In this document: positions 6,715 to 52,939 of the stretch, piece after piece
How the letters are laid out: every line of letters begins with the position of its first letter
How positions within the stretch are numbered: the stretch's first letter is position 1
Assembly: GCA_022821845.1 (NCBI GenBank)
Contig: JAJECT010000018.1
Coordinates: 20,306-84,305, forward strand
Reading direction: 5' to 3'
Origin: Rhodothermales bacterium
Lineage (GTDB): Bacteria; Bacteroidota; Rhodothermia; Rhodothermales; VXPQ01
Length of the DNA stretch: 64,000 nt
Translations under genes and position numbers: made by a program
Notes under the pieces: generated by a model
What the model saw: the letters and a program-made list of their open reading frames with translations, nothing else
Database searches by the model: none
What the model was told of the DNA's origin: nothing

Positions 6715-8388
6715 ATGAGCTGGGTAATTGGATTCGTTGGCAGCGCGCCGGACGCCGATGTAGCCGAAGCGCACGACGCTCCGCGATACGGCGTGCAGGA
6801 ATCCGGGGTGTACGCCCAGGCGGGTGGATTGGCGCTGACCTGTGCAGGCGGCGCCCTGCCGAACGGCGGTTCGTTTCTGATAACCGGGCTGGCGGCGGCA
6901 AACGGAACCGTACTGACGCGCGACGACTGGGCCGACCGGCTGAATCCTCCGAAACCCAACCTGCGCGATCTGGACGGTCACTTCGTAGCATTCCGTTGGC
7001 GTTCGGGCCGGGCGGAACTTTTCACCGACCCGCTGGGCGTCCGCACCGCGTACCTGAAGGCATGGCAGGGGGGTACGCTTTTTTGTACGCGCCTGGACTG
7101 GCTCGCAAACATCGTCGGCGGGCTGGACATCAACTTCGCAGCGTTCGGGGCGCACTGGCTTCTGCCGAAACAGCTCACCACGGAGAGTCAGGTACAAAAT
7201 GTCGTACGGCTCGGGCCGGGCGGGCACGCCGTCATAGAGCGCCGACACTTCCAAATGACGGAACAGCCGTGGGAAAGCGAAATCCGCCCCGCCGATCCCG
7301 ATGGCGACGTCTTCGCCGACGCCCTCTCCCAAGCCCTGCGCTGGAAAGGTCCGGTAGCCTGGAGCCTGGGGCTGTCCGGGGGGCTGGATTCGCGGTTGCT
7401 CCTGGCGCTGCATACGCCTGCCGCCGCGCATGTCTGGGGACCGTCGGACCATCCCGACGTGGACATTTCGCAGCGGATTGCCCAAAGCGAAGCCCTGCGT
7501 CACCATATTTTTGCGACCCCCGTTCCCAAAATAGACGAGTGCCTTTCGCTGCTCCGCAAGCACATAGCGCGCGCACAAGTCATTGCCCCTGCCTCGTCTG
7601 TCGCGAACCTTGATCACTATAGCCGATTGCACGCCATGGGCTTGGGCGTGATCGACGGGGGTTTTGGCGGAGTAGCCCGCAGGCAACTCATGAATCGCTT
7701 GCTGGCGCGAAGGGCATTTCGAGGACCCTGGCCCCTGATCATGCAACATTTGTCCATTGACCGAGGGAATATCTTCGCGCCCGAAATTTCAAAAATCATG
7801 CGGACGGGCGCGCTGGCGCAAATTGCAGAGCAGTGGGAGGCGATACCGGAGATAGTGGATCCTGAAAATGCCGTCGATCTTCTTTGTGTACGCATGCAAC
7901 TACCTAATTTTTTTGGATTTGAGCAAAATTATCTGGATGGGGAGGCGGCGTGTTACATGCCCTTTGCGCAGCCCTCGGTGTTAAAAGCGCTATTTCAGGT
8001 ACCGTTGGCGCAACGACGGAATGGGAAACTTTTCCGGCGACTCATAAAGCGTAACTGCGCATCTCTTTCGAGGCATCCGCTGGTCAAGGGAACAATCACC
8101 TATCCCTATGGATTGGGAACGTACGGGACCTATGCCATATCGACGCTCAAAAAGTGTTTGGGGCGGGCGTACAGCGATCCCAGACCGCATCAATTTCTGA
8201 ATGCGATGAAGCCATATGTCCTGGACCTGACCGGAAGCGCGGAGGTGCAAAACTATACGCCCTATGCGCATAAAGCGGTGCGGGCGCTTGCGGAAGCATA
8301 CTATAATGGAGACCTGCGACAGGCTTCCCGTCTGAACTGGTGGCTGACATTCGAAATATGGCGCCAGACGCTATCTGGCAAGCGCTAA
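6715..8388 (+). CDS. Asparagine-synthase-like PP-loop ATP pyrophosphatase without the N-terminal catalytic Cys
   Basis: It has the PP-loop SLGLSGGLDSRLLLAL. The N-terminal AsnB-like fold signature is DGHFVAF...LFTDPLGVRTAY. The N-terminus reads MSWVIGF rather than MCG. Confidence 0.8.
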   Translation: MSWVIGFVGSAPDADVAEAHDAPRYGVQESGVYAQAGGLALTCAGGALPNGGSFLITGLAAANGTVLTRDDWADRLNPPKPNLRDLDGHFVAFRWRSGRAELFTDPLGVRTAYLKAWQGGTLFCTRLDWLANIVGGLDINFAAFGAHWLLPKQLTTESQVQNVVRLGPGGHAVIERRHFQMTEQPWESEIRPADPDGDVFADALSQALRWKGPVAWSLGLSGGLDSRLLLALHTPAAAHVWGPSDHPDVDISQRIAQSEALRHHIFATPVPKIDECLSLLRKHIARAQVIAPASSVANLDHYSRLHAMGLGVIDGGFGGVARRQLMNRLLARRAFRGPWPLIMQHLSIDRGNIFAPEISKIMRTGALAQIAEQWEAIPEIVDPENAVDLLCVRMQLPNFFGFEQNYLDGEAACYMPFAQPSVLKALFQVPLAQRRNGKLFRRLIKRNCASLSRHPLVKGTITYPYGLGTYGTYAISTLKKCLGRAYSDPRPHQFLNAMKPYVLDLTGSAEVQNYTPYAHKAVRALAEAYYNGDLRQASRLNWWLTFEIWRQTLSGKR

Positions 8389-8418
8389 AGGATACGCTGA
8401 TTAAAACCACTACTACTC

Positions 8419-10017
8419 ATGCAACACATTCGCCTGCGCAATACCCCCAGCCCCGCTTTCAAGACAGCGATAGCCCTTGCGACGGCCGTCTTACTGGCGG
8501 CCTGTTCGCCCGAAGCGCCCAAACAGGGCGTAAACGTTGCGGCCGCTTCGCAAACGGAAACAGCGGCGGCGGACTCGCTTTTCCAGGAGGAACTGGCGCG
8601 AGATATCCGCACCATTGTTACGGGAGTAAAATCGCCCGCGCAACAAGAAGCGCTCGCGCAGGCCGCCCGCATCGCGCCGGGCCAAATGAACCACGACCTG
8701 CGCGAAATCCTCGTCGATGCGGCGACTTTTGTCAATTATTTAATGCTGCCTGCGTTGAAAGCCGACGATGCCCGTCTGGACAGCCTTTCCCAACTTCTGA
8801 CCCGCGCCTTGCAGCCTCAGTTTTCCCAGGAAGAATTGACGGCAGACATTCTGTCCATCGCATATCGTTTCCATGAAGAAAGCACCCCCCTTGAGCCAGT
8901 GCCTCAAGCGCGCCAGGAAACGGCGGCATGGGTGGCCATGCACATGTCTCCCGGAAAAATGGGAGAAGCATTACGACATGCTGTGATTGAAGGAATAGCA
9001 AGTATAGGCAACGAAAGTTATGGTATGTATACGACCAGGAGATTTCTTTTAGACGCATTGATAAATCAAACCCCCGGGGGCATGGAAACGCTGGCGGCAA
9101 ATCCGAAAGCAGTCGTTGGCCCCGGCATTCTTGACGAAGGTCGTATGTCTTCCTTTACATCTTTCGTCCGGCAAATATCAAGGCAGGGTACACCGGAACC
9201 ATATATCCCTCCGCCAACGCCAAAGCCAGAGATCACGCCCTTTCACGGACTTCTCGCGGCTATACAATCTATCTCGGCGGGCGAAAGGAGAGAACGACAA
9301 CTGGAAGCTGTACGGCATGTGGAAAAAATGGCGGAAGCGGATCCAACGCAGATAGGAGATACGCTACGCACGGCGATAGTAGACGCCTTTTTAGATATGC
9401 ACAACGCGGCAGCAAAGCCAACGTGGAGCAACCCGGGAGCCGAAGTCTACTATAGTTTACTGAACACGCTTGAGCGCCTTATCATAATCGTTGGAAATAC
9501 CCAAACAGTTGAACTTTTTACAGAACTTAATTTGTACGAATACGAATGCGTAGGGACCGTAAGCGAAGGTCTCTTCAAAAATTTTCCCGACCACAGCATT
9601 CCGTTGATCATTGAATCCACTGCTCAACCGCGAACGCTATCTGAAAAAACACCCGACGCACTGTATATTCTGGGCGAAATAATAATCGATTACAAACGAG
9701 GCAGGCTGGATATATCGCAGAATAACAGAGACCTGTTGATCGCCACAACCCGGCGTTTTCTGGAAGAAGACCTCTCGCTTGCGTGGAACACGCGAGGCGC
9801 ATCCAATTCGTATAGCGATTCGAACGTTCTGTCCGCAGCTATCCACTTGGCCATCGCGTTGGACGATCCGGACCTGATAGACATCTTGCAGGAATTGGCG
9901 ACGAATCCGGATAAAATAACCGTGCTCGGCCTTTCCGACGAACAGGTGGAAGATTTTCAGGAAGGCATAAAATGGCGTTTAGGCTGGCGGCCCTATATGG
10001 GACCTTCCGATTGTTAG
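8419..10017 (+). CDS. Large predicted lipoprotein of unknown function, predicted alpha-helical
   Basis: It has a signal peptide with a lipobox (AVLLAAC|SPE). It is a long uninterrupted ORF 31 nt downstream of the AsnB-like gene, and G+C drops towards its 3' end. Confidence 0.7.
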   Translation: MQHIRLRNTPSPAFKTAIALATAVLLAACSPEAPKQGVNVAAASQTETAAADSLFQEELARDIRTIVTGVKSPAQQEALAQAARIAPGQMNHDLREILVDAATFVNYLMLPALKADDARLDSLSQLLTRALQPQFSQEELTADILSIAYRFHEESTPLEPVPQARQETAAWVAMHMSPGKMGEALRHAVIEGIASIGNESYGMYTTRRFLLDALINQTPGGMETLAANPKAVVGPGILDEGRMSSFTSFVRQISRQGTPEPYIPPPTPKPEITPFHGLLAAIQSISAGERRERQLEAVRHVEKMAEADPTQIGDTLRTAIVDAFLDMHNAAAKPTWSNPGAEVYYSLLNTLERLIIIVGNTQTVELFTELNLYEYECVGTVSEGLFKNFPDHSIPLIIESTAQPRTLSEKTPDALYILGEIIIDYKRGRLDISQNNRDLLIATTRRFLEEDLSLAWNTRGASNSYSDSNVLSAAIHLAIALDDPDLIDILQELATNPDKITVLGLSDEQVEDFQEGIKWRLGWRPYMGPSDC

Positions 10018-31445: not shown

Positions 31446-31491
31446 GGAAAGGGAAGTGGATGGCGGACGAAAAACGGCCCGGACGTGCAGC

Positions 31492-31580
31492 CCGGAAAAC
31501 GCCGCGGGTACGGCGGCAAGGGGAATATAGGGAAAAGCGGGGCGGGGCGGCCTCGTTTTATCGCGGGCTGTCGGGGAAAT
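31492..31580. repeat. Left copy of an 88/89-bp direct repeat (island boundary), in the moaC 5' leader
   Basis: Manual alignment with 36596-36683 gives 7 substitutions plus one 1-nt indel over 89 positions. Confidence 0.9.
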
Positions 31581-36091: not shown

Positions 36092-36644
36092 CGTTTATCA
36101 GTGAGATGAGCAGAGCCTGCAAGAAAGCCGCCAGTGCTCCACCCTCCAGACCGCCCCTGAGCAATTCTGTGTTGAGCCCAGCTTCAATGGCGATAAACAC
36201 AGCACCAAGCGAGAGCATTAAGAGCCACTGTATCCAAGGAGCCGTCGCATCATTATCACCAGGCCGCGACACAGCCGATACAGCTTTGATTTCCGATTGC
36301 TGGACCTGCGTGGAAGCATCGTTCCCGTCGTTCCCGCCATTCCGCGACGCCAGCCCGTCCGGCGATTGGCCGAACTTCCGGCACAACGCCAACTGCTCCA
36401 GCTCCGCCTCGGTGCTACGAACCAATTCGTCGGGACCCTGGGACTGGCTGGAACCGCCCGGCCCGAGCGGATCGCTCAACTTGGCCCGGAGGTTGCTCAA
36501 ACTCAGGTTGACATAGTCCTGAAGATCAAGCCGCAAGCTGGCCAGGAGGCTTTGGTGGGCCGACTGCCACAATCCGCCCGGCTTGGACGCACAGTCCGGA
36601 AAACGCAGCGGGTACGGCGGCAAGGAGAATATAGGGAAAAGCAC
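36081..36644 (-). CDS. Hypothetical ORF, possibly a gene truncated by the adjacent IS remnant
   Basis: This 187-aa ORF has its N-terminus encoded by the right copy of the direct repeat. It ends in hydrophobic helices that abut the transposase fragment. Coding status is doubtful. Confidence 0.3.
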   Translation of the reverse strand: MLFPIFSLPPYPLRFPDCASKPGGLWQSAHQSLLASLRLDLQDYVNLSLSNLRAKLSDPLGPGGSSQSQGPDELVRSTEAELEQLALCRKFGQSPDGLASRNGGNDGNDASTQVQQSEIKAVSAVSRPGDNDATAPWIQWLLMLSLGAVFIAIEAGLNTELLRGGLEGGALAAFLQALLISLINVGG

Positions 36645-36683
36645 GGCGGGCGGCCTCTTTTTATCGCGGCCTGTCAGGGAAAT
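36596..36683. repeat. Right copy of the 88/89-bp direct repeat (island boundary)
   Basis: See 31492-31580. Both copies are in the same orientation. Confidence 0.9.
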
Positions 36684-36807
36684 CAGGCCCCGAATCCGCT
36701 AAAAAAGCGTGCCTATCCGCCTCATTTCCGTACATTGCCTGTAACCGTTCGGGGTTATCGAGCGTATAATGATACTGTGCCCCGTTTCTACAAAGCAGTC
36801 CCCTTAC

Positions 36808-38574: not shown

Positions 38575-41500
38575 TTACCGAAACGGCTCCCAGGCAGGCA
38601 GGCGGGATCTTCCCAGCACCGCGCCAAGGATATGTTCGGTTTCGGCTTTGTGCATTTCCGCGCTGCCCGTCGCGGGGCTTGCGCTGCCCGGACGTCCGAC
38701 ATAGGCCGTGCGTCCGTGCCCCACGCGGCTTACCTTGGCGAGCAAGGCATCCAGGCGGGACTGCATGTACGTCCAGGCGCCCATATTGGCGGGCTCTTCC
38801 TGCACCCAGCACACCTCGGCGGCGTCTCCGTACCGCACCAGTTCGGTCAATACCTCTTCTTCGGGGAATGGATAGTGCTGCTCGATGCGGGTAATGGCGA
38901 TGGACGTATCCTCTTTCTTGCGCAGCGCCTGGATCAGGTCGTAATACACCTTGCCTGTGCATAATACGTGCCGCCGCACGGCATGCGGGTCGGCGGCGGA
39001 CGGAATCACCTTCCGAAATCCCCCCTCGACGAGTTCCGACGCGGAAGAAACGAAAAGCGGATGGCGAAGCAAACTCTTCGGCGCCATCACAATGAGCGGT
39101 TTGCGGTCGGACCAGTGCGCCTGCCGCCGGAGCGCATGGAAATAATTGGCCGGGGTCGTAATGTTGCATACGATCATGTTCTCCTCGGCGCACATCTGCA
39201 AAAAACGCTCGAGGCGCGCAGACGAGTGCTCGGGACCCTGCCCTTCCCATCCATGCGGAAGCAGCGCGACCAGGCTGCTCTGCTGCGCCCATTTCGCCTC
39301 CGCCGCCGCAAGGAACTGATCGAACACGATCTGGGCGCCGTTGGCGAAATCTCCAAACTGCGCTTCCCAGATCACAAGCGCGGAAGGATCGGCCACGGAA
39401 TAGCCGTATTCAAAACCGAGCACGGCGTATTCGGAGAGGAGCGAATCGTAAATACGGAGTTTGGCCTGGCCGTCCCGGATGTTGTTCAGCGGAATGTATT
39501 CCCGCCCCGTTTGCTGGTCGTACAGCACCGCATGACGCTGACTGAACGTGGCCCGGCACGAATCCTGGCCGCTTAGCCGGACCGTCGTCCCCTCCAGAAG
39601 CAACGACCCGAAAGCCAGCGCCTCGGCGTACGCCCAGCCGACTTGCTGTTTTTCGAGGTACAGCCCCTTGTTTCGCTGGAACTGGCGCACGAGTTTCTTG
39701 TGCACCCGCACGTTGTCGGGGAAATCCGCCATGGCGTGGGCCACGGCGTGCAAGTCTTCTTCCGACGCTGCGGTCTCTGGCTCCTCGACCGACAGCGGCG
39801 CGGGCGCGGCCAGCGCGGCAGCGAGGTTCTTGGCCCGCGCAGCGTCCATGGAAGTCGTGCGGTCAAAGGCGTCCTGCAACCGGTCCCGATAGTCCCGCAA
39901 AATCTCTTCCGCTTCTTCGGGGTTCATTTCCCCTCGGCGCAGCAGCAGTTCCGTATACAATTTTCGGGGGGACCGTTTCTCCTCGATCTTCCGATAGAGC
40001 AGCGGCTGGGTGTAGGTCGGTTCGTCGCCCTCGTTGTGTCCGCGCACCCGATAGCACAACATGTCGATGACGACATCCTTGTTGAACGCGTTGCGGTATT
40101 CGAGCGCCAGCTTCACCACCCGTACGCACGCCTCCGGGTCGTCCCCGTTCACATGAAAAATGGGGGCCTGAATGGTGCGCGCCGTATCCGTGGCGTACGT
40201 GGAACTGCGGGCGTCCGCGGGAGACGTGGTGAAGCCAATCTGGTTGTTGATCACGATATGAATCGTGCCGCCGGTCTTGTATCCGGCCAGTTGGCTCAGA
40301 TTGAGCGTTTCGGTTACTACGCCTTGTCCGGCGAACGCCGCGTCGCCATGGATCAGCAGCGGAATAACCACGTCGCGAGACTCCGCTTCGAGCAAACCCG
40401 CAGCGCCGTATTGCAGAAGGTCCTGCCGGGCGCGCACCATCCCTTCGACGATCGGATTGACCGCCTCCAGGTGGCTGGGATTGGAGGCCAGCATGAGTTG
40501 CACGGTGGCCCCTGCGGGCGAGGTATGCTCCCCGTGCGCCCCCACATGGTACTTTACGTCGCCCGAACCCTGCGTCGTGGAAGGATCGATGTTCCCCTCG
40601 AATTCGGAGAAAATGGCTTCGTAGGGCTTGTTGAGAATGTTCGCAAGAATGTTCAGTCGGCCCCGATGCGCCATGCCAATCACCACCTCCTGCACGTCGT
40701 GGTCCGCCGCTTCGGACAACATGGCGTCGATCATCGGAATGACCGACTCGGCTCCCTCCAGCGAAAAGCGCTTGTGGCCTATGTATTTCGTATGCAGAAA
40801 CCGCTCGAACGCCTCCGCCGCGTTCAGTTTCTGGAGAATGCGCCGCTTGGCGTCGGGGCTTACCGGCTCCTCGCGTCCAGTGGGTTCGAGCCGGTCCTGA
40901 AGCCACCGCTTTTCGGTGGGGCTCGATATGTGCATATACTCGATGCCGATCTTGCGGCAATAGGTGGTCCGCACGATCTCCACGATATCGCGAAGCGGCA
41001 ATACGTCCTGGCCGCCCAGCCCGCCCGTCAGGAATTCCCGGTCCAGGTCCCAGATGGTCAATTCGTACCAGAAAGGGTCCAGTTCGGGATGATACATCCA
41101 GTTGTAGCCCAGCGGGTTGATGTCCGCCTGCAAATGTCCGCGCACCCGATGCTCCCGAATAAATTGCAGCACGCGCCCCTGCTTGTGCACCATATCGACG
41201 CGATCCTCGGGGCCGCCTCCGCCAATCTGCGGCGTCGTATCCGTCGAAAGTTCGTACGGCTGATAGGGTATGTTCAGCTGTTCGAAAATCTGCTGGTAGA
41301 ATCCGTGCTTGCCAAGCAACGTGTCTGCGACATACAGCAGAAACGCGCCGCTTTCGGCGCCCTGGATAATGCGGTGATCGTACGTGGAGCTAAGGTTCAT
41401 CACCGGAGAAATGCCCGCCTTGCTCACCGCTTCGGGCGGATAGGAATGGTATTCCGGGGGATACCCGATGGCGCCCGCGCCGATGATCACGCCCTGTCCC

Positions 41501-42270
41501 GGCATAAGCCGCGCCACGCTCATGTTGGTGCCGATCATACCCGGATTGGTGAGCGTGGCGGTCGTGCCTTCGAAATCCGCGACGCCGAGCTTGCCCTTCC
41601 GCGCGCGGCGAATAATATCGTTGTAGATGCCCATCAACTGGGGAAAACTCATGCGTTCCGCTCCCTTGATGTTGGGCACGAGCAAGGTCCGCTTGCCTCT
41701 CCGCTCTATGTCGATGGCAAGCCCCAGATTGACCTGTTCCGGGGCAATGTGCCGGGAAACCCCGTCTTCCCGCAGAAAGGTCGTATTCATGTTGGGGAAC
41801 CGGGCCAGCGCCTTGACGAGCGCCCACATGATCAGGTGGGTAAACGACACCTTCTCCCCGCCCTGGTGCTGCTGGTACGCATTGATCAGCAAGCGATTCT
41901 CGATCATCAATTTGACCGGAACGGTCCGCACGGACGTAGCCGTGGGAATGCCCAGGCTCGCCTCCATGTTCTCGACGATCTTCGCTTGCGAACCCCGAAT
42001 AGCGTCTTTGGGCGCCTTCGGCCGGTCCGGAGCGGGCGGCGCTTCCGAGGCGGGCGCAGCCCCGTCTCCCTGTTCGGGCGTCGGTTCCACAACCACCTCC
42101 TCGTGGGAAGGCGACGAAACCTGCCGGGCCGCGGCCACCGCCCGAAACGGCTCGTCGGGGGTGTAGTCGGCAAAGAATTCCCGCCAGGTCTCGGAAACGC
42201 TTTCCGGATCTTCAAGAAATTGGTGGTACAGGTTCTCGATGTATCCCGTATTGAATCCGAGCGCGCTCAT
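38575..42270 (-). CDS. sucA: 2-oxoglutarate dehydrogenase E1 fused to an N-terminal E2-like acyltransferase domain (Kgd/OdhA architecture)
   Basis: At about 1230 aa it is much longer than a plain E1o. The N-terminal part carries the 2-oxoacid dehydrogenase acyltransferase catalytic motif SSTYDHRIIQGAESGAFL. The remainder is typical E1o (RGHL.A..NPL, GMAHRGRLN, HGDAAFAGQG, GHNE.DEP). The start is set at MSALGFN (42270). Confidence 0.92.
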   Translation of the reverse strand: MSALGFNTGYIENLYHQFLEDPESVSETWREFFADYTPDEPFRAVAAARQVSSPSHEEVVVEPTPEQGDGAAPASEAPPAPDRPKAPKDAIRGSQAKIVENMEASLGIPTATSVRTVPVKLMIENRLLINAYQQHQGGEKVSFTHLIMWALVKALARFPNMNTTFLREDGVSRHIAPEQVNLGLAIDIERRGKRTLLVPNIKGAERMSFPQLMGIYNDIIRRARKGKLGVADFEGTTATLTNPGMIGTNMSVARLMPGQGVIIGAGAIGYPPEYHSYPPEAVSKAGISPVMNLSSTYDHRIIQGAESGAFLLYVADTLLGKHGFYQQIFEQLNIPYQPYELSTDTTPQIGGGGPEDRVDMVHKQGRVLQFIREHRVRGHLQADINPLGYNWMYHPELDPFWYELTIWDLDREFLTGGLGGQDVLPLRDIVEIVRTTYCRKIGIEYMHISSPTEKRWLQDRLEPTGREEPVSPDAKRRILQKLNAAEAFERFLHTKYIGHKRFSLEGAESVIPMIDAMLSEAADHDVQEVVIGMAHRGRLNILANILNKPYEAIFSEFEGNIDPSTTQGSGDVKYHVGAHGEHTSPAGATVQLMLASNPSHLEAVNPIVEGMVRARQDLLQYGAAGLLEAESRDVVIPLLIHGDAAFAGQGVVTETLNLSQLAGYKTGGTIHIVINNQIGFTTSPADARSSTYATDTARTIQAPIFHVNGDDPEACVRVVKLALEYRNAFNKDVVIDMLCYRVRGHNEGDEPTYTQPLLYRKIEEKRSPRKLYTELLLRRGEMNPEEAEEILRDYRDRLQDAFDRTTSMDAARAKNLAAALAAPAPLSVEEPETAASEEDLHAVAHAMADFPDNVRVHKKLVRQFQRNKGLYLEKQQVGWAYAEALAFGSLLLEGTTVRLSGQDSCRATFSQRHAVLYDQQTGREYIPLNNIRDGQAKLRIYDSLLSEYAVLGFEYGYSVADPSALVIWEAQFGDFANGAQIVFDQFLAAAEAKWAQQSSLVALLPHGWEGQGPEHSSARLERFLQMCAEENMIVCNITTPANYFHALRRQAHWSDRKPLIVMAPKSLLRHPLFVSSASELVEGGFRKVIPSAADPHAVRRHVLCTGKVYYDLIQALRKKEDTSIAITRIEQHYPFPEEEVLTELVRYGDAAEVCWVQEEPANMGAWTYMQSRLDALLAKVSRVGHGRTAYVGRPGSASPATGSAEMHKAETEHILGAVLGRSRLPAWEPFR

Positions 42271-42369
42271 AATGTTGGGTCGTTGACCAAGTTTGGCGAG
42301 AATCTGGCCTTCCATACCGTCAACGATACCGCCTGAAATCGGTTCTCTGTGCGGCGACGGAAGGGGTTC

Positions 42370-43398
42370 CTATGTTCTTGACGCTTGTCCTTTGCGGTCG
42401 CCGCGTCGCTTGCCAGGCGGCAACCATCCCTGCGCGCGATACCACGCGATCGTATCCGCAACCCCCTCCTGCAACGACAGGGCGGGACGGTAGCCGAGCA
42501 GCCGGCGGGCCTTGTCTATGGAGCACATCTTGCAAGCATACCGAATTTCCCGCGCCTTTTCCCGGTGAAAAGGCGGAAGCGCCCCCCACAACCGGAAAAC
42601 CCCTTCCGTCACGGCGCCCGACAGGCTCACAAGCGGCGGCGGCACGGATACGGTCAGGGCGTTTCGGCCCAGCGCCGCCGCCGAGGCTTCCTTGAGATCG
42701 CGCCACGAATAATGCGCCTCGCCGCCGAGAAAAAATGTTTCGCCCGCCGCGTCCGGCGCCTCCGCCGCAGCGATCATCCCGCGCACCAGGTCGCGGGCGT
42801 GGACCAGGCTCATCGCGGGGGCGCGGGCGTCGCCGACGACCGGGCACAAACCCATGTTCGCCATCCGGAAAAATGCATACAGGTCCGCTTCCCTTGGCCC
42901 GTACACCGTGGAGGGCCGCACGATGACGAGCGGGAGGCGGTCCCGCCATGCAGCAAGGGCTTCCTCCATGCGCGCTTTGCTCGCGCCATACCGACTGAGC
43001 GGGCGCATGGCGCTTTCTTCCGTGGCTACGGGGTCTTCGCAGCGCCCGATTACCGCAAGCGAACTGGTGACCACCACGCGGCGGACGCCCGGATTCACGC
43101 GGGCAAGAACTTCCATCAAGCGCAGCGTCGCCTCGACGTTTCCCTCTTCGAGCGCCGCATCCTCCCGGGCGCGCGTAACGCCCCCGTTATGATACACATA
43201 GTCCACGTCGCGCACGGCGTCGGCGACAAGCGCCTCGTCGAACAAATCGCCGCGCGCCTCGCGGATCGGGAGGCCCTCCAGCCACTTGCGGCGGGTGCGC
43301 ACCAGACATCGCACCTCGCCAAGCCCCCGCTGGAGCAGCGCCTCGACGAGATGGCTTCCTATAAACCCTGTGCCGCCGGTAACGAATGCTTTTTCCAT
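42370..43398 (-). CDS. NAD-dependent epimerase/dehydratase (extended SDR) family protein
   Basis: The N-terminal Rossmann motif is VTGGTGFIGSHLVEAL. The catalytic YGASK motif is present. Confidence 0.85.
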   Translation of the reverse strand: MEKAFVTGGTGFIGSHLVEALLQRGLGEVRCLVRTRRKWLEGLPIREARGDLFDEALVADAVRDVDYVYHNGGVTRAREDAALEEGNVEATLRLMEVLARVNPGVRRVVVTSSLAVIGRCEDPVATEESAMRPLSRYGASKARMEEALAAWRDRLPLVIVRPSTVYGPREADLYAFFRMANMGLCPVVGDARAPAMSLVHARDLVRGMIAAAEAPDAAGETFFLGGEAHYSWRDLKEASAAALGRNALTVSVPPPLVSLSGAVTEGVFRLWGALPPFHREKAREIRYACKMCSIDKARRLLGYRPALSLQEGVADTIAWYRAQGWLPPGKRRGDRKGQASRT

Positions 43399-43429
43399 AC
43401 GACAGAATACGCAATCCGTAACGATAAAA

Positions 43430-43684
43430 GGATACTCTGATCAAATCCGCTTCGCTCAGCGCGTCACTATTGCCCGCAAAGACCGTCCTGCCCGGATCAT
43501 TGAAATCAGCAGAAAATACAGTAGATTCGGTACGTTGCGTCCGTGACGCGCCCTTCGGGAGGCTGCGAGCGGCACGCTGGCTGTGTCATTCCTCATTATG
43601 TGGGACCTGCCACATTGCTTCGTCATTCCTTGCCAGCGCACCCCTCGCATGCCTCTGAGCTTCGCGGATTTAATCAGAGTATCC
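43430..43684. mobile_element. MITE-like element, copy A (~255 bp) with ~21-bp terminal inverted repeats
   Basis: The left end is GGATACTCTGATCAAATCCGC. The reverse complement of the right end is GGATACTCTGATTAAATCCGC (20/21 match). It is homologous along its length to 45199-45452. Confidence 0.75.
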
Positions 43685-43699
43685 TAAAGAATACGCAGG

Positions 43700-45103
43700 T
43701 TACGTTTTTCTGCGCAGTTTGACCACGTTCTCAACGTGGGGCGTGTGCGGAAACAGGTCCACGGGCTGCGCCGCCTCGATGCGATACGCGTCCCGCAACA
43801 AACCCAGGTCGCGCGCCTGCGTCCTCGGATTGCAACTTGCGTACACGAACCGCCGGGGACCCGACGCGGCGATCTGCTCGACTACTTTCGGGTGCAGGCC
43901 GGCCCGCGGCGGATCGACGAGGAGCACGTCCGCCGCGCCATGCCGCGTCGCGAAATCGGGACCGAACATGGTCGCCACATCTCCCTGCACGAAGGTGCAA
44001 TTGTCCACGCCGCTCGCCCGGGCGTTCGCGCGCGCGTTCCGAACCGCCTCTTCTATAAGTTCCACGCCCGTCACGCAGCGTACGGCGTCCGCCACAAAGA
44101 TGGATATGGTCCCCGCCCCGCAGTACAAATCGTAGACCCTGTCCTCCGATTGCAGTTCGGCGAACGCGCGCACCGTCTCGTACAGCCGCTCCGCCTGGGC
44201 CGTATTGGTCTGAAAAAAGGAATTGGCCGCAATCTCGAACGTATGCGGCCCGATCCGGTCGCGAATGACGCCGGGGCCAAACACGGTTTCGATCCGTTCG
44301 CCGAACGCCGTTTGCGCCTTCCCCGTATGAATCGTATTGACGAACGTGGTTACGTTGAGGAAATCCTGTCGCAGGAAGGCGGCCAGCTCGCCCATGCGCT
44401 CCGCATCGAATCCGTTTGTCACCAGATTGACCATGACGTCGCCCGTGCGTTCGCCGGTCCGGATGGCCAGATGCCGCAAAAAGCCGGTGTGCTTGCGTAT
44501 GTTCCAGGGCGCCCAACACTTCTCCCGAACAAAATCCCGAATCCGGTTCACCATGTCGGCGCTCGCCGTCGATTGGAGATGGCATTCGTGGACGTCGAGC
44601 ACCTTGTCGAAATGCCCCGGAACGTGCAAGCCCAGCGCAAAACGGGTGTCGAAGCGCCCGCCCGAATCGATTTCCGCGCGCGTCAGCCAGCGATTCGCGC
44701 TGAACGAAAATTCCATCTTGTTGCGGTAGAAATAGCGCTTCTCCGACCCGATGGCCGGGCGCACCGAAACCTCCGGGAACCCGCCGACGCGCGCGAGGGC
44801 GTCCCGTACGCTTTCCGTCTTGGCGTCAAGCTGGGCCTGGTATTCCACATGCTGCCACCGGCATCCGCCGCACGTCCCGAAATAGGCGCACGCCGGCGGC
44901 ACGCGCAGCGCGCTCGGCGACAACACCTCCTCTATCGCCGCCTCGGCATAGCCCTTTTTCTTCTTGTACACGCGGGCGCGCACGCGATCCCCCGGCACCG
45001 CCCAGGGCACGAAAACCACGAACCCGTCCACGCGGGCAAGCGACCGTCCGCCGTCGGCGAATTTTTCAATGGGTATTTCGATATGCTCGCCGCGCGCTAC
45101 CAT
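43700..45103 (-). CDS. rlmD: 23S rRNA (uracil-C5)-methyltransferase, RumA/RlmD family (TRAM + Fe-S + SAM methyltransferase)
   Basis: It has a TRAM domain (GGRSLARVDGFVVFVPWAVPGDRV). The Fe-S cysteines are CAYFGTCGGCRWQH. The SAM motif is DLYCGAGTISIF and the C-terminal motif is YASCNP.T.ARD. The start may be 45103 or 45160. Confidence 0.9.
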   Translation of the reverse strand: MVARGEHIEIPIEKFADGGRSLARVDGFVVFVPWAVPGDRVRARVYKKKKGYAEAAIEEVLSPSALRVPPACAYFGTCGGCRWQHVEYQAQLDAKTESVRDALARVGGFPEVSVRPAIGSEKRYFYRNKMEFSFSANRWLTRAEIDSGGRFDTRFALGLHVPGHFDKVLDVHECHLQSTASADMVNRIRDFVREKCWAPWNIRKHTGFLRHLAIRTGERTGDVMVNLVTNGFDAERMGELAAFLRQDFLNVTTFVNTIHTGKAQTAFGERIETVFGPGVIRDRIGPHTFEIAANSFFQTNTAQAERLYETVRAFAELQSEDRVYDLYCGAGTISIFVADAVRCVTGVELIEEAVRNARANARASGVDNCTFVQGDVATMFGPDFATRHGAADVLLVDPPRAGLHPKVVEQIAASGPRRFVYASCNPRTQARDLGLLRDAYRIEAAQPVDLFPHTPHVENVVKLRRKT

Positions 45104-45147
45104 GCGGTCGCCTCCCTGTCGATAAAAAATGCGTTGCCGAAAGCCAA

Positions 45148-45203
45148 TGTCCTGAAACAAAGGTCTTAAAACCAGTGTCCTGAAAAGCGTGTCCTAAAGG
45201 ATA
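45148..45203. repeat. Four tandem units of a 14-bp repeat (TGTCCTGAAAnnnn)
   Basis: The units are TGTCCTGAAACAAA, GGTCTTAAAACCAG, TGTCCTGAAAAGCG and TGTCCTAAAGGATA. They start at 45148, 45162, 45176 and 45190, an exact 14-bp phasing. The last unit runs into the left end of MITE copy B. Confidence 0.7.
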
Positions 45204-45452
45204 CTCTGATCAAAACCACTTCGCTCAGCGCGTCGCTATCCCCGCCAAAAAACGTCATACCCGAATCATGGACATCAGCAAGAAACACCGTAGATTCGGT
45301 ATGTCGTGGACGCGACGCGCCCTTCGGGAGGCTGCGAGGGGCACGCTGGCTGCGTCATTCCTCATTACGTGGGGCCTGCCACGCTGCTTCGTCATTCCTT
45401 GCCAGCGCACCCCTCGCAGCCTCTGAGCTTCGTGGATTGAATCAGAGTATCC
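45199..45452. mobile_element. MITE-like element, copy B (~254 bp), same orientation as copy A
   Basis: The left end is GGATACTCTGATCAAAACCAC. The reverse complement of the right end is GGATACTCTGATTCAATCCAC. The right ~145 bp are nearly identical to copy A and the left ~110 bp are more diverged. Its last base overlaps the bamA stop codon. Confidence 0.75.
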
Positions 45453-48034
45453 TAAAAAGCATGTCCCAAACTCAAACGGTGCCATTTCCAGGCGCGAAAA
45501 TCGTCTGGAAACACGCCCAGGTCGGGACGACGCGGGTCGTACACCTTCATGGCTATATCGGACCGAATAATCAGATAACGAAAATCCAGCCGGAGCCCAA
45601 AACCGGACCCGACGCCCAACTGGCGATAAAACGAATCGACGCGAAATCGGCCGTCCCGCTTCGCAGGCGCGTCGCCGCCGAACCCGGGATTGCGCGGACC
45701 GAACCACACATTGCCCGCGTCCGCAAAGACGACGCCGATCCAGTCCATGCCAAAGAGGCGGAAAAGGCGCTGGCGCAATTCCACGGAGGCTTCCAGTTTG
45801 ATGTCTCCGCCCAGAATGTTCGCGCCTTCCCCGGCGTCCTGCACAGACTGAAACTGCGCGCCGCCGGGACCCAGTTCATGCCAGTCCCAGCCCCGGACGC
45901 TGGATATGCCGCCTATGTAGAAGCGCTGTCCGAACGGCACCAGCCCCGCGTCGCCAAGAGGATGCGCAATGCCTCCGATAAACTTCAGTCCCAGCGTGGA
46001 AGAAGCGTCGATTGCATGGTACAACCGCAAATCGCTCGCGAAGCGCACGTATCGGCGGTACAAAAGCCGGTCGGACGAGCGCCCGGAAAACAGGCCCGGA
46101 AGATATCCGCTCACGTCGCCCGGAGAATACGCGAAACGGTCCAGCAAATACGGAAGATGGTTGCCCAGCGCGATCGAACCCTCGATGCTATGCCCCCGAT
46201 CACGGCGCAGCGGATTCACATTGGTCGAACGCAACGTATACCGAAGGGCCGTATTGATTTGCGGCACCGTGTAATCCTCGAGAATCTGCGCCTGCTGCAC
46301 CGGGTCCGAAACCGGATCGAGCAGGTTGTTCAGCACGTCGTTTCGGAAATTCCGCAACGTATCGGGATTGCTCAGGCTCACGTCCAGCACGTCCAGGAAC
46401 GACGTGAGCGTGGCGTTATGATCCAGTTCGATGCGGTAACGGGCATTGCCGCGCGCCCGGATAATGAGTCCGAAATCGTCGCGGCGCGCCTTGAGCAGGC
46501 TCAGGGACAGGCGCGTCCTGACGTCGTACAGCGGAAGCGCCCCGTCCAGTCCGCGAAACGGACGCATGAGATACGGCAGCGTAAGGGAGGTCGCAACCTC
46601 CGCCTGCGAGGCGGTCAAGCGGCTGAAATCGTCGAAATCCGTCGATATGGAGCCGGATGTTCGGACAAGGAAGGTCTCGCCGCGGCCCAGGAGGTTGGCG
46701 TTCTCGTAGGTTACGGCAACGCCCGCGCCCAATTCCTTGTCCGAATTATTGAAGGGGTCCACACGCTGCAGCACGGACGGCTCGAAACGAATCTGATGCC
46801 GGTCGCGCGTACGCAGCGCGATGCGATGGAAGAGGGTCGGCGCGGCGGGCGCGAAGCGCGGGGCGGACGCTTCCGGGACAATGTCGGTAAACAGAAACAC
46901 GCCCGTGCCTTCGAGCCTCCGTCGCGTAGCCAGCACCTTCGATTGCGAGTACCAATCCCCCGGAGCAAACTGAAGCGTACGGACCAGCAAGCCGGAGGAC
47001 AGTTTCTTTTCGTTCCGAAACCGGAAAGACGCGGTCCCGCTGGCGACAGAATCCGAAGACGCTTCAAGCGGACGGGTTTCGGAGCGCTCCGCCACTTGGG
47101 GTTCGGGCCCCGTTACGTCGAACGCAACGTCTCCAAAGCGATACCGCGACCCGGTTCCGATTTCGAAGCGCACGTCCAGGCTGTCCGACGTCGCCGAAAA
47201 AATCACGGCGCGGATAGAATCCCGGGTAGCGGAAGCGTAGCCCTCGTCTCGCAGAAAAGTCAGGATGCGCCTTGCCTCGCTATGCAGCGTCGTTTCGGAA
47301 TACCGTTGTCTGCGCGCCCGCAGACGCAGGGGGCGGTCCGGATCGACGGGCGCGACGCGCAGAACGGCGGCCCGCGCCAGCCGCGTATGCTGGTCGGGCG
47401 CCAGGTGGTCGATCCCGGCGTACTCCACGTTCCGTATGTACGTGGGCGGGCCGGGCGCGACGCGGAAAACGACCGCGACTTTCTTCGCCGAGAGCGTATC
47501 GATCCGGGCAATTACCTCGGCTTCGAAGAACCCTTCCTGCCGATACAAAAGACGCAGGCGGTCCAGGTCCGCCTGGAGCACGTCCATGTCGAGCACGGCA
47601 AGCGGCTCGCCGCCCGCGATCAGCGAATTGCTCAGCCGTTCCCCAAGGGCGCCGGACTGTCCGAGGCGGTGAAACCACAGCCAAACGGTCATCCCCGGAA
47701 TTTTGGCCAGCCGGCGATTCGGCTTCGTGCGGACCCGGCGGGCCAGGACGGACTTGCCAAACGCATCGTCGCCCTCGAAAACAACGCGGCGCACGACAAG
47801 CGTATCCATATACGCCTCTTCGGGGGAGATTCCCGGAGAAGCGGCTGTTCCCGCATCCTGGGCGACCGCCGCGCCGACCAGCGCGAACGCGAAGGCCAAC
47901 CAGACGATCCGGGGAAGAAAAACGCGATACGAGCGTCCGCCACGCAACGGGTTACTCTTCCTCGAAATAAAAATCGTCGTCCGCCGTCGGATAATCCGGC
48001 CAAACTTCTTCAATGCTTTCGTACGGCTCGCCAT
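45452..48034 (-). CDS. bamA: Outer membrane protein assembly factor BamA (Omp85 family)
   Basis: It has POTRA-like repeats (VVRRVVFEGDDAF, IRNVEYAGIDHL). The C-terminal beta-barrel carries RFYIGGISSVRGW and a terminal aromatic residue (...SLGHAF). The start is uncertain because the 5' 83 nt overlap the upstream gene. Confidence 0.88.
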   Translation of the reverse strand: MASRTKALKKFGRIIRRRTTIFISRKSNPLRGGRSYRVFLPRIVWLAFAFALVGAAVAQDAGTAASPGISPEEAYMDTLVVRRVVFEGDDAFGKSVLARRVRTKPNRRLAKIPGMTVWLWFHRLGQSGALGERLSNSLIAGGEPLAVLDMDVLQADLDRLRLLYRQEGFFEAEVIARIDTLSAKKVAVVFRVAPGPPTYIRNVEYAGIDHLAPDQHTRLARAAVLRVAPVDPDRPLRLRARRQRYSETTLHSEARRILTFLRDEGYASATRDSIRAVIFSATSDSLDVRFEIGTGSRYRFGDVAFDVTGPEPQVAERSETRPLEASSDSVASGTASFRFRNEKKLSSGLLVRTLQFAPGDWYSQSKVLATRRRLEGTGVFLFTDIVPEASAPRFAPAAPTLFHRIALRTRDRHQIRFEPSVLQRVDPFNNSDKELGAGVAVTYENANLLGRGETFLVRTSGSISTDFDDFSRLTASQAEVATSLTLPYLMRPFRGLDGALPLYDVRTRLSLSLLKARRDDFGLIIRARGNARYRIELDHNATLTSFLDVLDVSLSNPDTLRNFRNDVLNNLLDPVSDPVQQAQILEDYTVPQINTALRYTLRSTNVNPLRRDRGHSIEGSIALGNHLPYLLDRFAYSPGDVSGYLPGLFSGRSSDRLLYRRYVRFASDLRLYHAIDASSTLGLKFIGGIAHPLGDAGLVPFGQRFYIGGISSVRGWDWHELGPGGAQFQSVQDAGEGANILGGDIKLEASVELRQRLFRLFGMDWIGVVFADAGNVWFGPRNPGFGGDAPAKRDGRFRVDSFYRQLGVGSGFGLRLDFRYLIIRSDIAMKVYDPRRPDLGVFPDDFRAWKWHRLSLGHAF

Positions 48035-52917: not shown

Positions 52918-52939
52918 AATGCATTCCCCTATGGATACT

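Follow-up and report, generated by a model that had tools for sequence, protein, structure and literature searches.

The two elements that flank an rlmD-like gene in the 64-kb stretch of Rhodothermales DNA analyzed here (the window) are, with a probability that we put at about 90%, copies of a noncoding MITE mobilized in trans by the IS5-family DDE transposase (DUF772 plus DDE_Tnp_1) of a 1,171-bp insertion sequence (IS). The original prediction had called the element MITE-like, and that reading is borne out by a dispersed multicopy family, terminal inverted repeats (TIRs), 4-bp target-site duplications (TSDs), an IS5-family partner whose ends match, and orthologous sites that are empty in relatives. 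Judging from the family, the transposase would recognize the two TIRs of ~18 to 21 bp, would then cut out or copy the MITE, and would insert it at 4-bp A/T targets, which would be duplicated; the long internal stems would be part of the palindromic architecture of the MITE. The transposase partner is assumed to be resident in the source genome. For the host, the MITE copies are most likely neutral passengers.

Two copies around an rlmD-like gene

Copies A and B (Table 1) lie on the same strand and are 87% identical in a gap-free comparison and 91% identical by MAFFT mean column identity, in agreement with the predicted pair of homologous ~255-bp copies in the same orientation. The right portion had been described as nearly identical and the left as more diverged; in plus-strand coordinates, the two are 93% and 78% identical, respectively. 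The predicted TIRs with covarying ends were also recovered, with matches at 20 of 21 positions in copy A (GGATACTCTGATCAAATCCGC and GGATACTCTGATTAAATCCGC) and at 18 of 21 in copy B, and with CCGC/GCGG at the termini of copy A and CCAC/GTGG at those of copy B. The flanks are A/T rich and TAAA-like, as had been noted, and the target duplication suggested at that time is complete in copy B (TAAA on both sides, 4/4), which inserted at a TTTA target overlapping the bamA-like stop codon. The left flank of copy A, AAAA, is a decayed TSD, because it fits TAAA at three of four bases. Both copies were said to start 0 to 15 nt from the stops of minus-strand genes; indeed, copy B has one base in common with the TAG stop (45452-45454) of the Omp85/BamA-like gene, and copy A lies ~11 to 15 nt from the TAA stop (43700-43702) of the rlmD-like gene.

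Table 1. Positions of the MITE copies, their parts, and neighboring features in the window
Feature	Position	Strand	Details
MITE copy A	43430..43684	-	255 bp; between rlmD-like stop and epimerase start; IRL-like end at 43684, IRR-like end at 43430; nhmmer model 1-254, E 2e-79
MITE copy B	45199..45452	-	254 bp; between Omp85/BamA-like stop and rlmD-like start; nhmmer E 1.5e-76
Copy A TIR, IRR-like	43430..43450	+	GGATACTCTGATCAAATCCGC
Copy A TIR, IRL-like	43664..43684	-	GGATACTCTGATTAAATCCGC
Copy B TIR, IRR-like	45199..45219	+	GGATACTCTGATCAAAACCAC
Copy B TIR, IRL-like	45432..45452	-	GGATACTCTGATTCAATCCAC; final base doubles as the G in the TAG stop codon of the bamA-like gene
Copy A left flank	43426..43429	.	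AAAA; 3/4 match with right flank TAAA
Copy A right flank	43685..43688	.	TAAA
Copy B TSD, left	45195..45198	.	TAAA; partner 45453-45456
Copy B TSD, right	45453..45456	.	TAAA; 4/4 match with left
Copy A hairpin 1	43559..43655	-	23-bp stem; arms 43559-43581 and 43632-43655
Copy A hairpin 2	43459..43551	-	Stem GCGCGTCAC 43459-43467 / GTGACGCGC 43543-43551; interior variable
Copy B hairpin 1	45328..45423	-	Arms 45328-45350 and 45401-45423, 21/23 complementary
Copy B hairpin 2	45228..45320	-	Stem 45228-45236 / 45312-45320; interior variable
Solo terminal fragment, same MITE family	8390..8439	-	21-nt TIR GGATACGCTGATTAAAACCAC plus ~30 nt; nhmmer model 205-254, E 0.012
NAD-dependent epimerase gene	42370..43398	-	Downstream of copy A
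TRAM + U5-methyltransferase (RlmD-like) gene	43700..45103	-	Bracketed by copies A and B
Omp85/POTRA (BamA-like) gene	45452..48034	-	Upstream of copy B

The 16-nt terminal motif has six matches in the window, compared with 0.06 expected, and a solo terminal fragment of the family is located between the ORF 6715-8388 stop codon and an ATG at 8419. A weak motif match at 52933 was without support from the profile search and was dropped. The only ORFs in the 254 to 255 bp of the MITE are 62 to 64 codons long; a conserved small ORF (64 codons, 43456-43650, minus strand) was ruled out by frame-breaking indels and internal deletions among the copies.

In the closest relatives, in which rlmD is 91, 88, and 85% identical, both window insertion sites are empty. 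The gene order M23-bamA-rlmD-epimerase-OGDH is retained, with short spacers, in four genomes (L110, L111, L112, and L113), and a search of the orthologous spacers with the MITE profile gave no match. Since both sites are empty despite the conserved gene order, the insertions are recent and independent: they are two separate events that postdate the split from relatives with rlmD 85 to 91% identical. This was the comparison for presence or absence that had been proposed with the original prediction.

A dispersed family and its IS5-family partner

Counting the copies, as had also been proposed, revealed a dispersed multicopy family. The terminal motif plus core was found at at least 304 distinct loci (nhmmer instances with distinct flank clusters), which come from two metagenomes and from MAGs of about 10 Rhodothermales species. 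The 21-nt terminal pattern matched more than 107 genome stretches, nearly all of them in ~10 Rhodothermales MAGs, and the core pattern matched more than 120 metagenome stretches; at least 98 distinct copies are full length. One 2.69-Mb chromosome carries at least 32 MITE instances in 21 blocks. Short-read assemblies of one and the same organism are interrupted within MITE copies.

Full-length members measure ~254 bp, internally deleted ones 117 to 190 bp, and the minimal, TIR-only hairpins ~40 bp. A 187- to 190-bp class without the hairpin 2 interior, a ~130- to 164-bp class without hairpin 1, and 37- to 60-bp forms that consist of the TIRs only all recur, often with TSDs. The MITE can spread without either internal hairpin, because derivatives that have lost hairpin 1, hairpin 2, or both are found, with TSDs, at several loci.

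Among 52 elements, the flanking 4-mers are identical in 13 (4.3 expected) and at most one base apart in 34 (16.5 expected). Other TSD lengths were without comparable enrichment (3-mers, 0/52; 2-mers, 10/52, with 3.6 expected), the 2-mer excess arising largely from 4-mers that repeat themselves, such as TATA. The commonest target is TTAA, followed by TTTA, TATA, and CTAA.

The search for a cognate transposase with matching TIRs led to an IS5-family IS in L073, L114, L115, and L116. This autonomous partner is 1,171 bp long, has the same terminal 12 to 18 nt as the MITE (common sequence, GGATACTCTGATY.AA..CC), and is flanked by TTAA or TTTA duplications; four copies were found. The copy at L073:6424-7594 reads TTAA-GGATACTCTGATCAATCC...GGATTAAATCAGAGTATCC-TTAA and encodes, in a single ORF, a 315-amino-acid DDE_Tnp_1 transposase (PF01609, 1.9e-30) with an N-terminal DUF772 domain (PF05598, 9.4e-21), an arrangement that fits the IS5 group within this family. 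The partner transposase is ~60% identical to proteins annotated InsH/IS5. The transposases of the other copies are 93% (L114, TTAA TSD), 79% (L115, nested in a MITE arm), and 68% (L116, TTTA TSD) identical to it.

Several observations count against mobilization by this IS. No IS5-type transposase gene lies within the 64-kb window, and no similarity was found between the MITE interior and the IS interior. Furthermore, IS5 in Escherichia coli generates 4-bp YTAR duplications, TTAA and CTAA included (PMC5009759); TTAA (L073 and L114) falls within this motif, whereas TTTA (L116 and window copy B) and TATA lie outside its strict form.

Internal hairpins and alternative roles

Folding, another of the checks proposed earlier, gave a very stable Y-shaped structure for each of copies A and B (-111 to -137 kcal/mol; z-scores, -7.9 to -10.7). 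The 23-nt arm described for copy B pairs with its counterpart at 21 of 23 positions, and the repeat that it was said to enclose, GTCATTCCT, is present twice per copy (43585 and 43622 in copy A; 45354 and 45391 in copy B). In copy A, the stem of hairpin 1 encloses a small hairpin at the tip and a purine-rich internal loop that carries the GGAATGAC motif twice on the minus strand. Across 38 copies, 97.9% of the cells in helix 1 (the TIR) and 93.7% of those in all helices are paired, and 21 base pairs show compensatory changes, compared with 10.4 ± 1.7 in shuffles. Conservation is uneven along the MITE: the hairpin 2 interior is variable, the hairpin 1 loops and the CCGAAG junction are near-invariant (entropy, 0.00 to 0.20), and the stems vary with compensation. 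Both the uneven conservation and the compensatory changes count against the MITE explanation; the 21 compensated pairs, which a purely "junk" model leaves unexplained, hint at some constraint on the source copies. The frequency of private substitutions per column is roughly uniform from region to region of the MITE (0.25 to 0.70), which speaks for neutral decay of the single copies, and with this uniformity, purifying selection at the level of individual copies was dropped as an interpretation.

The stable folds, the extent of pairing, and the compensated pairs also speak for a cis-acting RNA selected by the host, in which the hairpin at the 3' end terminates transcription or protects or processes the mRNA, as in REP/BIME, ERIC, and Correia elements. 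Both window copies are sense to codirectional genes, 0 to 15 nt past their stop codons, and the gene-sense strand is the more stable one in 33 of 38 copies. However, tandem-gene contexts in the family show no sense bias (39 sense versus 69 antisense copies; 16 versus 26 among full-length copies), and other copies have divergent (42) or convergent (31) genes on their two sides. The sites in close relatives are empty, and private mutations are not depleted in the conserved parts. No stem-plus-U-tract terminator is present in the copies, the only site inside one of them in a terminator scan being a weak 6-bp stem (45302-45285; two sites in the region versus 2.6 in shuffles). Rfam gave no match in the whole window at the gathering threshold, and in the MITE region at the E-value threshold, the best subthreshold hit was MIR533, with 19 bits versus a threshold of 80. 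The original prediction of a selected 3'-untranslated-region terminator or stabilizer thus finds no support as a property of the family, with orientation, terminator structure, and private mutations all against it, and we regard a host-selected cis-acting role as quite unlikely. As a separate observation, the antisense excess relative to genes, if there is any, is driven by fragments. The original prediction had also raised a small RNA, and a MITE with its own promoter could be imagined to encode a small structured RNA, hairpin 1 and its invariant GGAATGAC loops being the core and the TIRs serving to spread the gene. The near-invariant loops and junction between compensating stems would fit such a gene, as would five ancestral G·U positions versus one A·C position on the transposase-sense strand, but it matches no Rfam family, a promoter consensus scan found nothing convincing (its one candidate, weak and sigma-70-like, lies on the opposite strand), derivatives without hairpin 1 propagate too, private mutations are uniform, and the strand asymmetry is absent from a larger sample. 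On that asymmetry, a first count based on RNAalifold pairs gave 247 G·U versus 11 A·C cells (22 versus 1 positions), an excess that was inflated by the way in which RNAalifold drops A·C positions from its pairs; when the helices were treated symmetrically, it fell to 24 versus 11 positions (P = 0.04), and in 60 independent further copies, it was 32 versus 25, which is not significant. The cell-level excess comes from ~5 ancestral wobble positions, one of which, position 13, is simply an IRL/IRR difference that is also seen in the IS. Selection at the RNA level was therefore dropped as a reading of this asymmetry, given the biased count and the loss of the effect in the 60 further copies, and a small RNA gene seems very unlikely.

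It is somewhat less improbable, although still doubtful, that hairpin 1, with its 23-bp stem, two invariant GGAATGAC motifs, and CCGAAG junction, is a nucleic acid module selected in the source copies; if so, it would be a host-factor or transposase site that boosts mobilization or a small RNA from the transposase-sense strand. Finally, two same-orientation copies around a single gene could be read as a composite transposon with which rlmD arrived here, but the order bamA-rlmD-epimerase-OGDH is kept in four relatives without the MITE, and copies A and B are each flanked by 4-mers of their own; this origin of rlmD is refuted by the conserved synteny, and its probability is close to nil.

Known relatives and consequences for the host

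In Porphyromonas gingivalis, MITEs derived from the IS5 family include BrickBuilt, MITE293, and MITE700, and Neisseria has the ATR element, with ISNme1 (PMC4596501). Like these, the Rhodothermales MITE is short and noncoding, has TIRs that match an IS5-family IS and an interior unrelated to it, and occurs as full, partial, and nested copies; P. gingivalis is also a member of the Bacteroidota, and the Rhodothermales MAGs are labeled "Bacteroidetes/Bacteroidota bacterium" by NCBI. Unlike them, it has TIRs of the form GGATACTCTGAT... rather than GAGACCTTTGCA..., a clean 4-bp TTAA-type TSD, no internal minisatellites, a two-hairpin Y-shaped interior, and hosts in another clade. The partner IS resembles E. 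coli IS5 in its single DUF772 plus DDE_Tnp_1 transposase, its size of ~1.2 kb, its ends, which begin with GG, and, in part, its duplication of 4 bp at targets of the TTAA/CTAA type (YTAR; PMC5009759), whereas the MITE, unlike IS5, encodes no protein, TTTA and TATA targets are also used, and the TIR is group specific. In Geobacter uraniireducens, the Chunjie MITE (Chen et al. 2008, summarized in PMC10969869) is ~235 bp long and is inserted between genes of an operon. It too has many partial copies and occurs in size variants (178 to 235 bp) whose TIRs and direct repeats are conserved, but its sequence is unrelated to that of the Rhodothermales MITE, and its host is different.

Correia elements in Neisseria and ERIC elements in Enterobacteria form RNA hairpins, which RNase III cleaves or which affect the access of RNase E (PMC10969869). 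If cotranscribed, the paired TIRs of the Rhodothermales MITE would likewise form long RNA hairpins, and by analogy, the window copies could be processed in the same way. Correia elements are ~100 to 155 bp long, have TIRs of 26 bp, and duplicate a TA target, and the present MITE differs in size, TIR sequence, and TSD (4 bp). REPs are imperfect palindromes of 20 to 40 nt that are not known to have TIRs or TSDs and are spread by RAYT (Y1) transposases. The earlier comparison with REP/BIME captures the intergenic, palindromic, and multicopy nature of the Rhodothermales MITE but not its kind, since this unit of 254 bp has TIRs and TSDs, and a DDE partner accounts for its ends.

If bamA, rlmD, and the epimerase gene are cotranscribed, each copy would add a hairpin of approximately -133 to -137 kcal/mol to the mRNA, and as long hairpins, the window copies may have a local side effect. 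Furthermore, because two direct copies bracket rlmD, the gene could be deleted by homologous recombination.

The element is of an ordinary kind, because it is very probably mobilized by the IS5 family and is common in a group of Rhodothermales. A literature search for a described Rhodothermales MITE found no earlier description, so that an abundant MITE family and its IS5-type partner are newly documented in this uncultured clade, as a further case of IS5-derived MITEs at A/T-rich stop codon neighborhoods in GC-rich genomes. The family explains why short-read assemblies of such genomes break at MITE sites, and the insertion polymorphism provides markers for strain tracking.

Structure and gene setting of the two copies

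The two repeats around rlmD (copies A and B) align over their entire length, with a mean column identity of 91% and a gap-free identity of 87%. The original prediction, made from the sequence alone, gave their coordinates correctly and held that conservation is higher in the right part (plus-strand coordinates) than in the left, which agrees with identities of 93% and 78% between the copies. The other structural details that it described were also recovered: 21-nt terminal inverted repeats (TIRs; 20/21 matches in A and 18/21 in B), termini that covary between the copies (CCGC/GCGG in A, CCAC/GTGG in B), a 23-nt arm at 45328-45350 that is complementary to 45401-45423 over 21 of its 23 nt, two GTCATTCCT repeats in each copy, and TAAA-type flanks, perfect at B (TAAA/TAAA) and AAAA/TAAA at A. 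Both copies adjoin stop codons, as claimed; the TAG of the bamA-like gene shares its G with copy B, and 15 nt separate the TAA of the rlmD-like gene from copy A. Chance does not account for the repeats: a 16-nt end motif has six matches in the window (0.06 expected) and each copy, on either strand, folds far better than its shuffles (z-scores of -7.9 to -10.7). The fold is Y shaped, with a 21-bp terminal stem and a short second stem followed by two long hairpins (hairpins 1 and 2). All genes that neighbor the copies are on the minus strand.

Coordinates of the repeats, neighboring genes, and partner insertion sequence
Feature	Position	Strand	Remarks
Copy A	43430-43684	minus	255 bp
Copy B	45199-45452	minus	254 bp
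Omp85/POTRA (BamA-like) ORF	48034..45452	minus	
TRAM + U5-methyltransferase (RlmD-like) ORF	45103..43700	minus	
NAD-dependent epimerase	43398..42370	minus	
Solo TIR (21 nt) plus ~30 nt of the family	8390-8439		between stop 8386-8388 and ATG 8419
Partner IS	L073:6424-7594		1171 bp; TTAA-GGATACTCTGATCAATCC...GGATTAAATCAGAGTATCC-TTAA

The stretch that separates copy B from the rlmD ribosome-binding site (45107-45198, minus strand) contains four loosely tandem TTTCAGGACA-like motifs, and the relative with the most similar rlmD (91% identical) has pyrimidine-rich CCCTTTTC repeats at this position; these repeats possibly represent element ends that have decayed, or else a regulatory region. Elsewhere in the window, direct repeats of ~105 bp (31475-31580 and 36579-36685; 88% identical) surround a ~5-kb segment of low GC content (31.55-36.58 kb; 0.36-0.56, compared to ~0.63 in the surroundings) with five minus-strand ORFs, the sole Pfam match being Peptidase_M15_3; the segment resembles an island gained by horizontal transfer, and its bracketing repeats are att-like. 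The 2-oxoglutarate dehydrogenase E1 ORF (38575-42315) has an N-terminal 2-oxoacid acyltransferase (E2-like) domain, an OdhA/Kgd-type fusion of the kind best known from Actinobacteria.

A dispersed family with an IS5-type partner

Further copies, which the prediction had proposed to count, were found in number. In two more assemblies of this organism the contigs end precisely within the copies, a usual outcome with multicopy repeats. Scanning one genome per species with GGATACKCTGATYNAAWCCRC returned more than 107 stretches, and among the matches listed nearly all came from ~10 Rhodothermales species known from metagenome-assembled genomes; the approximately one dozen listed from other taxa are of chance order (~17 expected by our own estimate). 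A core-motif scan of JGI metagenomes added more than 120 stretches among the matches listed. When the collected DNA was searched with a profile of 38 full-length copies, at least 331 instances were found in at least 304 distinct flank clusters, including at least 98 distinct full-length copies. The modal size is ~250-256 bp; recurrent 187-190-bp forms lack the hairpin-2 interior, ~130-164-bp classes lack hairpin 1, and forms of 37-60 bp are merely two TIRs joined. In two copies (L012:2112-2365 and L105:5657-5910) the hairpin-2 interior is inverted relative to all others, pointing to recombination between stem arms.

The short target duplication that had been thought possible proved to be 4 bp. 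Of 52 elements retaining both ends, 13 had identical 4-mers on the two sides and 34 had 4-mers within one mismatch, compared to 4.3 and 16.5 expected from mismatched left/right pairs, and no other length was comparably enriched: 3-mers matched in 0/52 and 2-mers in 10/52 (3.6 expected), the latter mostly explained by self-repeating 4-mers such as TATA, which give a 2-nt match as well. The most frequent flank is TTAA, followed by TATA, TTTA, ATAA, and CTAA. Exact nonpalindromic pairs (CTAA/CTAA, CATA/CATA, and TTTA/TTTA) show direct duplication rather than extension of the inverted repeat.

When TIRs in inverted orientation and separated by more than 700 bp were searched for, a candidate for the cognate transposase that had been sought was obtained, within the autonomous partner IS. 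The single ORF of this IS (315 aa) carries DUF772 (9e-21) and DDE_Tnp_1 (2e-30), the IS5/InsH architecture, and a protein search returned thousands of relatives named IS5 family transposase at source, InsH of IS5 among them. Three closer homologues were compared. The L114 element (transposase 93% identical) shares the ends of the partner IS and is flanked by a TTAA duplication; the L116 element (68%) has the ends GGAAACTCTGATTAATCC and GGAAGCTCTGATCAATCC, with a TTTA duplication. The L115 element (79%) interrupts a MITE arm at its TTAA, and that MITE lies within another copy. The two ends of the IS differ, with GATT.. on the upstream side of the transposase gene and GATC.. on the downstream side, and the repeats have the same polarity. 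The 64-kb window itself contains no IS5-type transposase. E. coli IS5 duplicates 4 bp at YTAR, which includes TTAA and CTAA (PMC5009759).

Additional MITE or IS copies insert at the TTAA in the MITE's own arm (GATTAAG / GATTTAATC), which accounts for many truncated ends. Nested insertions are seen at L115:100-240, L083:2955-2984, and L073:6399-6424, and solo ends like that in the window are common in related genomes.

Insertion sites in relatives

Contigs with homologues of the rlmD-like protein show that the gene order M23 peptidase, bamA, rlmD, epimerase, and 2-oxoglutarate dehydrogenase is conserved in four relatives (rlmD 91, 88, 85, and 70% identical). The presence/absence comparison that had been suggested found both sites empty, with no match to the MITE profile in the four rlmD loci. 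The bamA-rlmD spacer is 114 nt, 13 nt (TAA stop to ATG), and 184 nt in the 91, 88, and 85% relatives, and in the fourth a cNMP-binding gene separates the two genes; rlmD-epimerase spacers are 64, 42, and 93 nt in three of the four. Site B reads GCTTT[TTTA]-MITE-[TTTA]GGACACGC on the minus strand, compared to GCTTTTTAA.. in relatives, and the bamA-like stop is intact. Judged from these sequences, the window insertions are evidently recent and independent. An unrelated AT-rich segment of ~1.5 kb in the 88% relative (L111:1664-3234) occupies copy A's intergenic site; this spacer between rlmD and the epimerase thus looks like a hotspot for insertions.

RNA role and classification

It had also been postulated that the copies act as terminators, stabilizers, or small RNAs, but the tests directed at such an RNA role did not support it. 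The structure is conserved: 93.7% of helix cells are paired, with 21 compensatory pairs, compared to 10.4±1.7 in shuffles and 5-10 with slid partners. In 33/38 copies, the strand that is gene sense in the window folds more stably than its complement (by a mean of -8.7 kcal/mol), and G·U greatly exceeds A·C on RNAalifold pairs, although that count is biased because A·C positions are left unpaired. On symmetric helices the excess was 24 versus 11 positions (P = 0.04), and in 60 further copies it was not significant (32 versus 25); strand asymmetry was therefore rejected as evidence. The residue is ~5 ancestral wobble positions versus one A·C, and one of these wobbles is a difference between the left and right TIRs that the IS shares. 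Orientation, scored against the transposase-sense strand with a codon-log-odds gene caller that reproduces the window's gene map, did not bear out such a role: tandem-gene contexts held 39 sense and 69 antisense elements (P = 0.005; 304 flank clusters), an excess due mainly to fragments (16 versus 26 full-length copies, not significant), and 42 elements lay between genes that diverge and 31 between genes that converge. Substitutions private to a copy are spread approximately evenly along the element (0.25-0.70 per column), nearly invariant hairpin-1 loops included; therefore, individual copies decay neutrally. Derivatives without hairpin 1 or without hairpin 2 are still recurrent. The copies contain no U-tract terminator and match no Rfam family. 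Terminator and known-RNA identities were rejected, as were REP/BIME and Correia identities. Subfamily divergence is uneven (entropy of 0.0-0.2 in the loop and junction versus 0.87 in the hairpin-2 interior), and together with the compensatory changes it possibly reflects constraint acting on the source copies or conversion between the arms of palindromes; a reading of hairpin 1 as a functional module is improbable.

In conclusion, the two repeats are very probably a MITE with an IS5-family partner (probability, approximately 0.9). At the sequence level, the element has all of the features that define MITEs, and the partner IS has the transposase architecture and length of the IS5 group and a TTAA duplication that fits YTAR, although TTTA and TATA do not strictly agree with that motif. 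MITEs matched to the IS5 family are already known from Bacteroidota and Neisseria (PMC4596501); our literature search found no description of Rhodothermales MITEs. By analogy, the element, where transcribed, may act as a Correia or ERIC element does (PMC10969869).
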